Origin: Patescibacteria group bacterium
GTDB taxonomy: Bacteria; Patescibacteriota; Minisyncoccia; UBA6257; 2-01-FULL-56-20
Direction: 5' to 3'
Assembly (NCBI GenBank): GCA_024654525.1
Contig: JANLHI010000031.1
Span: 18,774 to 82,773 of the forward strand
DNA: 64,000 nt
The notes beneath the pieces are model-generated. The model made no database searches. It was not told where the DNA came from and saw only the letters and a list, made by a program, of their open reading frames with translations. The translations under genes and the position numbers were made by a program. This document shows positions 59,885 to 60,595 of this stretch, one piece after another. The number at the start of each line of letters is the position of its first letter. The first letter of the stretch is position 1.

Positions 59885-59899
59885 CCTCAAATCTCCAAT

Positions 59900-59935
59900 T
59901 GTCATAAATAAACGCCATGGCGTTTATTTATGACA
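59900..59935. promoter_or_regulatory. 36-bp perfect palindrome (16-bp arms, 4-bp spacer), upstream copy
   Basis: tgtcataaataaacgc-catg-gcgtttatttatgaca; identical to the copy at 60544-60579. Confidence 0.6.
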
Positions 59936-59958
59936 ATATGATATGTTATCTTGTGTAT

Positions 59959-60513
59959 ATGCCGAGGGGTATCGGGAAGATTCAGAAAAAAGTATTGCTG
60001 TTGTTGCAAGGGGGTTTTGCGCTTGGACTTGCGAGTTCTCCTCAAAAACAACTCAAGGTTCTCAAAGGTATTAAGAAAGAATGGGATGCGATTGATAGAA
60101 GATCGCTCTATCAAACAATTCGGAGTCTCTATCGCAGTGAGTTGATTGATTTTCGAGATAGAGGAAAAGGAAGAGTGGACATGGTACTTACGAAGCAGGG
60201 AGCGCGTAGGGCATTGAGTTTTAACCTTGATACGCTCTCTATAAAGCGACCGATACGGTGGGATAAAAAGTGGAGAATTGTTTGTTTCGATATACCAAAA
60301 GAACAAAAAAGAGCACGGGACGCTTTGCGATCTCACTTGTTGCGTCTTGGATTTTATCCTTTCCAAAAAAGCATTTTCATATTTCCTTATTCTTGCAACG
60401 ACGAACTTGATTTTTTGATTGAGATTTACGAAGTGAGGGCGTATGTGCGGCAAATCGTTGCAGAAGAGATAGATAACGCACTACATCTCAAAACTATATT
60501 TCATATCTCCTAA
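59959..60513 (+). CDS. mini-PaaX-like protein: winged helix plus Cas2-like module (paralog 2)
   Basis: WDKKWRIVCFDIPKEQKRARDALRSHLLRLGFYPFQKSIFIFPYSC and the C-terminal ...LHLKTIF are both shared with paralog 1. The track ORF from 59917 begins inside the palindrome (MAFIYD...); the ATG at 59959 (MPRGIGKIQKKVLLLLQGG) aligns with paralog 1. Confidence 0.55.
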   Translation: MPRGIGKIQKKVLLLLQGGFALGLASSPQKQLKVLKGIKKEWDAIDRRSLYQTIRSLYRSELIDFRDRGKGRVDMVLTKQGARRALSFNLDTLSIKRPIRWDKKWRIVCFDIPKEQKRARDALRSHLLRLGFYPFQKSIFIFPYSCNDELDFLIEIYEVRAYVRQIVAEEIDNALHLKTIFHIS

Positions 60514-60543
60514 TATTTGCGTTGAAGATGTGGTGTGTATACC

Positions 60544-60579
60544 TGTCATAAATAAACGCCATGGCGTTTATTTATGACA
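60544..60579. promoter_or_regulatory. 36-bp perfect palindrome, downstream copy (40 bp including cc/gg flanks)
   Basis: Identical sequence to 59900-59935; sits between the convergent stops of the paralog-2 gene and tsaD. Confidence 0.6.
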
Positions 60580-60595
60580 GGGAGGTAGGATGGGT

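Follow-up and report, generated by a model that had tools for sequence, protein, structure and literature searches.

A 64,000-nt stretch of the genome of a Patescibacteria group bacterium (GenBank assembly GCA_024654525.1, contig JANLHI010000031.1), referred to here as the window and used for numbering throughout, contains a small gene, which we call mini-PaaX, that is bracketed by two copies of one palindrome (Table 1). The palindrome, TGTCATAAATAAACGCCATGGCGTTTATTTATGACA, is perfect over 36 nt, and, as the original prediction held, exact copies of it lie at 59900–59935 and 60544–60579, on either side of the gene and 644 bp apart from centre to centre. Both copies extend to perfect palindromes of 40 nt, whose outer two base pairs differ and yet are self-complementary in each (AT..AT at 59898–59937; CC..GG at 60542–60581), and these are the longest perfect palindromes of the window. 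Folded as single-stranded DNA, they form 18-bp hairpins of −17.6 kcal/mol (upstream, z = −8.5) and −19.2 kcal/mol (downstream, z = −9.6). No third match to TGTCATAAATAAACGCCATGGCGTTTATTTATGACA was found in the window, even with up to three mismatches, nor any copy of a half-site elsewhere in it, and 0/100 shuffled sequences contained a match (chance expectation, 0); two copies in 64 kb argue against a generic repeat. Exact and degenerate searches of JGI metagenome contigs with this palindrome gave no match, and an Rfam search of 59000–61000 returned nothing but chance resemblances, below threshold, between the hairpin and miRNA precursors, which we rejected.

The predicted extent of the gene, 59959–60513, also stands. 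The ATG at 59959 was preferred to the longer open reading frame (ORF) starts at 59917 and 59938 because homologs begin with MPRG or MPKG, and the product is thus 184 aa long. The upstream palindrome has outer boxes TGTCAT and ATGACA set 24 bp apart and a central core GCCA/TGGC (the slash marks the dyad). It is preceded by an intrinsic terminator of the next gene upstream, and so probably lies outside the transcript of that gene. The downstream copy sits, as had been predicted, between the convergent stops of mini-PaaX (60513) and tsaD (60596); it ends 15 nt before the tsaD stop, and it has no T-tract.

The product had been described as a winged-helix segment joined to a module resembling both the central part of PaaX and Cas2, and profile search, structure prediction and fold search all uphold this description. 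Residues 100–172 match PF20803 (PaaX_M, ‘PaaX central Cas2-like domain’) significantly, at 75.2 bits (cut-off 24; E = 4e-21), and the same domain is carried by 72/72 homologs. Matches to Cas2 itself are borderline: PF09827 scores 24.4 bits, barely above its cut-off of 23.8, NCBIfam TIGR01573 scores 24.4 bits, just under its cut-off of 24.5, and PADLOC returned only weak Cas2 matches for this product. The PaaX equivalog TIGR02277 reaches 23.9 bits against a cut-off of 264.55, the Pfam families PaaX_N and PaaX_C (PF08223) do not match the 184-aa protein, and the chain stops right after the Cas2-like domain, without the C-terminal effector domain of PaaX. In an AlphaFold model, residues 7–77 form three helices and a β-hairpin wing (predicted local distance difference test, pLDDT, 47–78), and MarR, SlyA and HxlR profiles match residues 10–94 weakly. 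Foldseek against the PDB placed full-length Escherichia coli PaaX (8a39) at the top, followed by many Cas2 structures, Rv0674 and VapD; sequence searches of the PDB gave weak MarR and Cas2 matches and one match to a designed repeat, which we judged spurious. The residues W101, D102, W105, D111, R120, S138, P143 and C146 are invariant in the family. D111, which does not vary among 47 sequences, aligns with Asp8 of the Cas2 structure 6jhz, at the end of β1; the 184-aa protein also retains the Cas2 motifs FDIP and QKSVF, which E. coli PaaX has lost. The protein is therefore a winged helix plus a PaaX-central/Cas2-like domain, and it belongs to the broad PaaX_M-containing family, not to PaaX proper.

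How general is the bracketing? The family is large, with 72 close clusters, at least 579 matches in GTDB contigs (one genome per species) and, in a library clustered at 50% identity, at least 915 representative proteins with E ≤ 1e-30. It is essentially patescibacterial, and several metagenome-assembled genomes (MAGs) hold two or three paralogs. Our comparative set comprised 80 fetched Patescibacteria loci with 77 family genes and 235 control genes. A segment shared by the upstream and downstream flanks (score ≥14) was found for 84% of the 77 family genes against 0.9% of the 235 controls (Mann–Whitney p = 1e-38); overall, some 85–90% of the 77 homologs are bracketed. Near the ends of family genes (within 150 nt), palindromes of score ≥11 reach 28 times the density seen in the rest of the loci, and a generic scan for this type of site found 92 sites beside family genes and 8 elsewhere, with 0.3 expected by chance. 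The bracketing is retained in members of just 30–39% identity; in one locus (L092) ACGATCGT cores flank the family gene on both sides, and in another (L093) an identical 36-mer stands on each side. By these sequence comparisons, self-bracketing is the norm in a large gene family whose members have private palindromes. The distant member P0071 (L093/L094, 3181–5244), with identical 36-nt flanking palindromes, lies directly upstream of five tandem genes resembling pilin genes of type IV secretion systems, and an AbiEii-like gene is near. Among 2.9 million viral contigs there was one weak, truncated family match (L086), and hence no evidence of phage association.

The window itself holds a second such unit, a paralog whose product is 46% identical to that of the 59959 gene over 178 residues. 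Its palindrome differs in sequence from that of the 59959 gene. The downstream copy is perfect; the convergent paralog and thrS end on either side of it, and 639 bp separate its centre from that of the upstream copy. The upstream copy is degenerate, being 79% identical to the paralog’s own palindrome; it showed no folding in the hairpin computation, and it is located where miaA (start 23691, minus strand) and the paralog diverge, within a gap of 60 nt. A site in this gap (23691–23752) could control both genes. Both mini-PaaX genes of the window sit among tRNA-related genes (miaA, thrS, valS, tsaD, gatB), which may merely mirror gene content in the Candidate Phyla Radiation (CPR).

When the sites of the family were aligned on their dyads, with positions counted from the dyad, a strict core emerged: C stands at −3 in 100% of them and A at −1 in 86%, position −2 is G or T and position −4 a purine, giving the consensus RCGA/TCGY (for example ACGA/TCGT, GCTA/TAGC and GCGA/TCGC). 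In this common register the window cores are GCCA/TGGC (59959 gene) and CCTA/TCGG (paralog). Outward from the core, positions 5–8 are poorly conserved and are followed by an A/T-rich part and then by clade-specific outer boxes at about 13–17, arm complementarity reaching about 17 nt from the dyad; about half of the sites are imperfect palindromes. Conservation between the upstream and downstream copies of one locus is highest at the core and at positions 9 and 13. The outer boxes go with the sequence of helix 3 of the protein, AGCA occurring with xQxLxRAI and ACAaaaa with ELxKEI. Mutual information between protein columns and site positions was swamped by high-entropy columns, and we replaced it by this helix-3 table and a partial Mantel test, in which the arms correlated with the winged helix given the C-terminal domain (r = 0.14, p = 0.0005) but not with the C-terminal domain given the winged helix (r = 0.04, p = 0.15). 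Paralogs of one MAG have different arms and a shared core. Because the outer boxes are linked to the protein in these three ways, the winged helices probably read the arms; the conserved part of the protein, a Cas2-like dimer with the WDxxW motif, would then face the conserved core. In sequence geometry, the unusual layout of widely spaced inverted boxes, TGTCAT(N24)ATGACA here, resembles that of the E. coli PaaX operator, which a review gives as TGATTC(N27)GAATCA (PMC9493321); in the sites of the family, conservation peaks lie 9–14 from the centre.

The position of the upstream copy also bears on its function. To the right of the upstream sites the family-wide consensus is TGnTAnAAT, and TAnnnT ends exactly 6 nt before the ATG in 33/81 family genes, while motifs of the Shine–Dalgarno (SD) type are found in 1%. 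From this −10 position and the near absence of SD-like motifs, the mRNAs of the family are probably leaderless. A generic sigma-70 scan detected no canonical promoter before the 59959 gene, so that the promoter was assigned from where the −10 lies across the family; its −35 region would be within the right arm of the palindrome. Across the family, the upstream site is centred either 26.5 nt before the ATG, where it covers −10 and −35, or about 38–48 nt before it, where it covers −35, and both window genes are of the second type. The upstream site is thus placed as the operator of an autorepressor would be; PaaX of E. coli sterically hinders RNA polymerase at its own promoter and so represses it (PMC9493321). 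Among 269 control ORFs of ≥200 aa in the loci (L001–L080), TAnnnT stands exactly 6 nt before the ATG in 15% and SD-like motifs occur in 11%, a pattern that hints at leaderless mRNAs being common in these organisms.

The downstream copy lies 6–108 nt past the stop codon of the family gene, and the gene that follows it is co-directional at 38 loci and convergent at 18. Because the copy is kept with either orientation of the neighbour, it is a feature of the family gene’s 3′ end, not of the promoter of the neighbour, although at about eight loci it could serve the next gene too. We considered a plain intrinsic terminator and rejected it: a terminator scan flagged neither window palindrome, and T-tracts are not enriched family-wide (the 8 nt that follow the arm hold 2.6 T on average, and 2.6 are expected; terminator-like downstream sites, 9/64). 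At 53/64 loci no other terminator-like hairpin occurs within 220 nt of the stop of the family gene. Arm mismatches of the G.T type outnumber those of the A.C type in the downstream copies (40 vs 15, p = 0.001) but not in the upstream copies (29 vs 28; Fisher p = 0.02). Such a downstream-only bias is the pattern expected if the copy is transcribed and a hairpin in the sense-strand RNA matters; a mutation bias linked to transcription is an alternative cause. The roles proposed for the downstream copy are less certain than the claim of cognate sites and autoregulation.

The surroundings of the unit are conserved in its orthologs but not in the family. Orthologs of 57–61% identity occur in the same PrsW–valS–hypothetical–mini-PaaX–tsaD–atp context and orientation. 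The closest homolog, P0002 (66% identity), has a different context, and a relative with the same PrsW–valS–hypothetical–tsaD synteny has a 76-nt gap between the hypothetical gene and tsaD, without the gene and without the palindromes. The original prediction had offered a discrete cassette as its alternative to a regulator with two operators; the conserved synteny of the orthologs weakens this idea, and the syntenic relative that cleanly lacks gene and palindromes speaks for it. The 139 neighbours of family genes match 156 Pfam families, none of which recurs more than six times; they are diverse housekeeping genes, and no antitoxin-like partner ORF is conserved. There are no target-site duplications around the unit, and no tandem or CRISPR-like array in the window. 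The 25 most frequent Pfam families of the 139 neighbours include no cas1, transposase or integrase, the window genes having been profiled in part; the predicted absence of a CRISPR array and of these genes holds in the array scan and among these recurrent families. Four or five palindromes of this type (16–21-nt arms around a CGATCG or CCATGG core) stand alone in the loci, away from any family gene (Table 1). Those in promoter or intergenic regions (L053, L031, L011) suggest that some members have a few further targets, perhaps of other paralogs, or they are scars.

Table 1. Coordinates of the two mini-PaaX units of the window and of solo sites in other Patescibacteria loci
Feature	Position	Strand	Remarks
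Upstream operator-like palindrome	59898–59937 (36-nt core 59900–59935)	.	Centre 59917/59918, 41.5 nt 5′ of ATG
Putative extended −10 TGTTATCTT	59944–59952	+	Ends 6 nt before ATG; assigned from the family pattern
mini-PaaX gene, 184 aa	59959–60513	+	ORF list, profile searches, homolog starts, structure prediction
Downstream palindrome	60542–60581 (36-nt core 60544–60579)	.	Centre 48.5 nt past stop codon
Intrinsic terminator of upstream conserved hypothetical gene (59189–59779)	59843–59872	+	13-bp GC-rich stem and T-run
Paralog mini-PaaX gene, 189 aa	23752–24321	+	46% identical to 59959-gene product over 178 residues
Paralog upstream site, degenerate copy (79% identical) of the paralog’s own palindrome	23692–23734	.	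Centre 23713/23714
Putative extended −10 TGGTATTAT of paralog	23737–23745	+	6 nt before ATG
Paralog downstream site, perfect 18+4+18 palindrome AACTGCGGTTATAAAACC-TATC-GGTTTTATAACCGCAGTT	24333–24372	.	40 nt
Solo site	L053 2340–2371		54 nt before TPM-domain gene, promoter region of TPM/NUDIX cluster; GCCATGGC core of 59959-gene clade
Solo site	L031 4811–4852		Family-type palindrome
Solo site	L011 5749–5780		Family-type palindrome
Solo site	L036 586–621		Inside miaA

What might such an arrangement do? Of the explanations that the original prediction had put forward, a dimeric helix-turn-helix regulator with its operator on both sides is the best supported, by the bracketing in the paralog and in homologs, the co-variation of arms and winged helix, the promoter overlap and the PaaX-like geometry. 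We give a probability of roughly 0.6 to the proposal that the palindromes are the cognate binding sites of the protein and that the upstream one mediates autoregulation. Mini-PaaX would be a short transcription factor of the PaaX family whose Cas2-like domain makes the dimer, as in PaaX, and the 36–40-bp palindrome would be its operator: the two winged helices would read the outer boxes TGTCAT...ATGACA, 24 bp apart, and the conserved dimer core would sit over GCCA/TGGC, the clade version of RCGA/TCGY. Bound to the upstream copy, over the −35 and spacer of a leaderless extended −10 promoter, the protein would repress its own synthesis. The downstream copy would be a second operator just past the stop, whatever gene follows, and most likely it would loop over about 640 bp to the upstream one, block polymerases entering or leaving the gene, or do both. 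If transcribed, it would probably also serve as a 3′ stem-loop by which the mRNA is ended or stabilised, intrinsic terminators being few in this genome. The outcome would be a self-contained, insulated and autoregulated unit, and paralogs of the same genome, which share the core but not the arms, would not cross-talk.

The nearest known relative of this system is PaaX, the repressor of the paa operon that responds to phenylacetyl-CoA (PA-CoA; E. coli W, 8A39). Like mini-PaaX, it has an N-terminal winged helix, the WDxxW motif and a Cas2-like central domain. Its operator consists of inverted 6-bp boxes about 2.5 helical turns apart (N27, against N24 in the putative operator of mini-PaaX), and it acts at its own promoter, as is proposed for mini-PaaX. 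In contrast, PaaX has 316 aa and a PA-CoA effector domain, whereas mini-PaaX has 184 aa and no such domain. No paa genes lie near mini-PaaX, its neighbours being valS, a hypothetical gene, tsaD and the atp operon; the whole spacer of its putative operator is palindromic, with a family-wide core, and a second copy stands past the stop. Moreover, the mini-PaaX family seems to be restricted to Patescibacteria and to have several paralogs in a genome. Repressor genes lying between cognate palindromes a few hundred bp apart, one on a promoter and the other auxiliary, are known from looping systems such as those of lambda CI (OL/OR), coliphage 186 CI (FL/FR) and TP901-1 CI (OR/OL/OD), and the lac, gal and deo systems have auxiliary operators; sites so arranged would permit looping that is cooperative and autoregulation that is tight. 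Each of these is a single system, and it controls lytic or metabolic genes next to it. The bracketing of mini-PaaX, unlike theirs, is a trait of a whole chromosomal family without conserved neighbours, and its second site is in the 3′ untranslated region.

Several findings weigh against autoregulation by a PaaX-type repressor. The N-terminal domain is modelled with only moderate confidence, and the correlation between arms and winged helix is small and partly confounded by shared ancestry. Within the 64 kb each window palindrome occurs only at its own gene, and the neighbours of family genes are not conserved, so that the gene is its own sole evident target, an odd situation for a regulator. 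From −41.5, where the site of the 59959 gene is centred, activation instead of repression is in principle conceivable. The Asp that corresponds to the catalytic one of Cas2 never varies in the family but is missing from E. coli PaaX, and the domain may therefore do more than dimerise. Finally, differences between upstream and downstream copies that are compensated, so that both copies remain perfect palindromes, number 75 against 13.5 expected; in one locus (L082), for example, the copies AAAAGCCATGGCTTTT and TCCGCCATGGCGGA differ at three adjacent positions and both are still palindromic. Read-out by a protein alone does not predict such changes, which point to hairpin or cruciform formation, or to correction of quasi-palindromes by template switching.

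The compensated changes would be accommodated if the palindromes were chiefly nucleic-acid hairpins, either bidirectional terminators or insulators, or RNA stem-loops bound by an RRM-like (RNA recognition motif) Cas2 domain for post-transcriptional autoregulation, the mutual similarity of the copies having arisen by duplication and by gene conversion over 640 bp. The folds are very stable, most family genes have no other terminator downstream, the downstream sites show an excess of mismatches compatible with G.U pairing on the sense strand (40 vs 15), and several Cas2 and VapD proteins are termed ribonucleases (PDB titles; PMC10491678). We nevertheless regard this as unlikely. The upstream copy, which lies before the −10 and past the preceding gene’s terminator, is unlikely to be co-transcribed with the gene, and the G.U bias is absent from the upstream sites; T-tracts are not enriched, and palindromes with no loop are unlike the looped, GC-rich terminators elsewhere in the loci. 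Many of the palindromes are imperfect and yet conserved in sequence between the flanks, and a strictly conserved 8-bp core with arms co-varying with the winged helix is a signature of protein recognition. The palindrome–gene–palindrome unit might instead be a cassette, selfish or mobile, or what is left of such a cassette, with the sites as the ends of the element and not operators: the winged helix would target the palindromes and the Cas2-like domain would nick or cleave them, or help to recombine at the core, possibly on hairpins or cruciforms. The unit is self-contained, with no Pfam neighbour family recurring more than six times; genomes hold several diverged copies in unrelated contexts, the closest homolog is itself in another context, and the syntenic relative cleanly lacks the gene and both palindromes. 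The invariant Asp, the retained QKSVF and the compensated changes that maintain perfect palindromy would fit a DNA-processing role, and the solo sites could be empty targets or scars. Such mobility is nevertheless quite unlikely in our judgement, given that the orthologs stay in the same place and orientation, the paralogs within a genome are old (46%) and differ in their arms, near-identical copies were not seen, neither target-site duplications nor a recombinase or transposase partner accompany the unit, and 2.9 million viral contigs yielded one weak match. In addition, the upstream site is positioned on the promoter like an operator, imperfect sites make up about half of the total, and that upstream of the window paralog does not fold. 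Both flanking sites are self-symmetric and not hybrid, contrary to a central crossover between unlike sites, and we rejected integration by central crossover on this ground.

A bolder form of the same thought is that Cas2-derived, sequence-specific modules act on palindromes of about 36 bp and do more than bind them, with a pair of Asp residues placed on the dyad of a CGATCG-type core nicking or resolving hairpins or cruciforms, which would make the unit a new kind of self-bracketed element; we consider this improbable, and we know of no nuclease activity in the mini-PaaX family. The likeness to Cas2 consists of the borderline profile matches, the Asp at the end of β1 and some database entries that name family members ‘Cas2’, and the likeness to CRISPR repeats of associated repeats that are 36 bp long, palindromic and in the CRISPR-repeat size class. 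Unlike Cas2 and VapD, mini-PaaX is fused to a winged helix and has no cas1, CRISPR array, leader or antitoxin partner, and its two repeat copies surround a 608-bp gene segment, not spacers of 30–40 bp; we rejected a CRISPR mini-array, there being no array in the window and no cas1 among the recurrent neighbour families. As in repetitive extragenic palindromic (REP) elements with their REP-associated tyrosine transposases (RAYT) and in IS200/IS605 insertion sequences, a small gene with a ferredoxin-like, nuclease-type fold is flanked by hairpin-forming palindromes. In contrast to these, mini-PaaX has no HUH/Y1 motif or profile match, its palindromes are not dispersed in the 64 kb, its ancient paralogs have private palindromes, and the synteny of its orthologs is conserved. 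REP/RAYT and IS200-like elements were rejected, since only PaaX_M and Cas2 profiles matched and the palindromes occur only at their own gene in the window; an integron attC cassette was rejected too, there being no integrase and the sites being identical. That the palindrome is a generic REP-like element, or a chance duplication unrelated to the gene, is hardly credible: although 64 kb of the genome were inspected, two copies occur there against 0 expected, half-sites are absent elsewhere, and the same arrangement with other sequences recurs in the paralog and in some 85–90% of homologs, against about 1% of controls.

Other features of the window were seen in passing. The gene at 59189–59779 (plus strand), directly upstream of the unit, encodes a conserved hypothetical protein of about 196 aa without a Pfam match, which is 43–46% identical to counterparts in Liptonbacteria (L082) and 44% in metagenome relatives (L088–L091); the gene is syntenic between valS and tsaD with or without the mini-PaaX gene. 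The valyl-tRNA synthetase encoded at 55962–58892 (minus strand) has a His_Phos_1 histidine-phosphatase domain inserted in the middle of its catalytic domain, as do the syntenic enzymes of two related MAGs (L081, L082). Between the ORFs at 41728–43098 and 43177–43839 lies a 38-nt perfect palindrome, ACAACATTCCAACATTCTCCAGAATGTTGGAATGTTGT (43135–43172), unrelated in sequence and core to the mini-PaaX sites. A 27-nt inverted repeat (17572–17682; 93% complementary, arms 57 nt apart) occupies the gap from an ORF end at 17575 to the start of an ssb-like ORF at 17681 and may be regulatory or a terminator. At 1150–3600, a cluster of long imperfect hairpin-like repeats with units of 7 and 14 nt (GATGTCGGACTTCGGATGTCAGATTTCAGA...; families D1–D3) is spread over several intergenic gaps, with TRF arrays at 3472–3574; similar GAAGTCCGACTTC hairpins occur in the Giovannonibacteria loci L049 and L051. 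The window also has a very large ORF at 10331–17131 (plus strand; 2266 aa).

Patescibacteria (the CPR) make up a large share of bacterial diversity, and to our knowledge almost nothing is known of their gene regulation. Our literature searches, which combined PaaX with Cas2-like, with Patescibacteria or with Parcubacteria, found no paper on PaaX-like proteins or such palindromes in this group, and we found no published description of what mini-PaaX appears to be, a minimal PaaX-type repressor with a family-wide, self-bracketing and co-evolving pair of operators. The intact Cas2 motifs make the family a bridge between PaaX and Cas2, and a place to ask whether the Cas2-like domain of PaaX-type proteins contacts or cuts DNA. 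Should these modules indeed act on their palindromes, a Cas2-like protein and CRISPR-sized repeats would be paired in the absence of Cas1, which would bear on the first pairing of Cas2 with repeats. The conserved 3′ site, the strict core and the compensated palindromy are atypical for operators and suggest a compact means of gene insulation in terminator-poor genomes. Because each gene has its own site on both flanks, the pairing of protein and site can be read from the sequence, giving dozens of predicted orthogonal repressor–operator pairs. These predicted pairs would form a natural data set from which to study how PaaX-type winged helices recognise their sites, and would help to predict CPR regulons; mini-PaaX may be among the main transcription-factor families of Patescibacteria.

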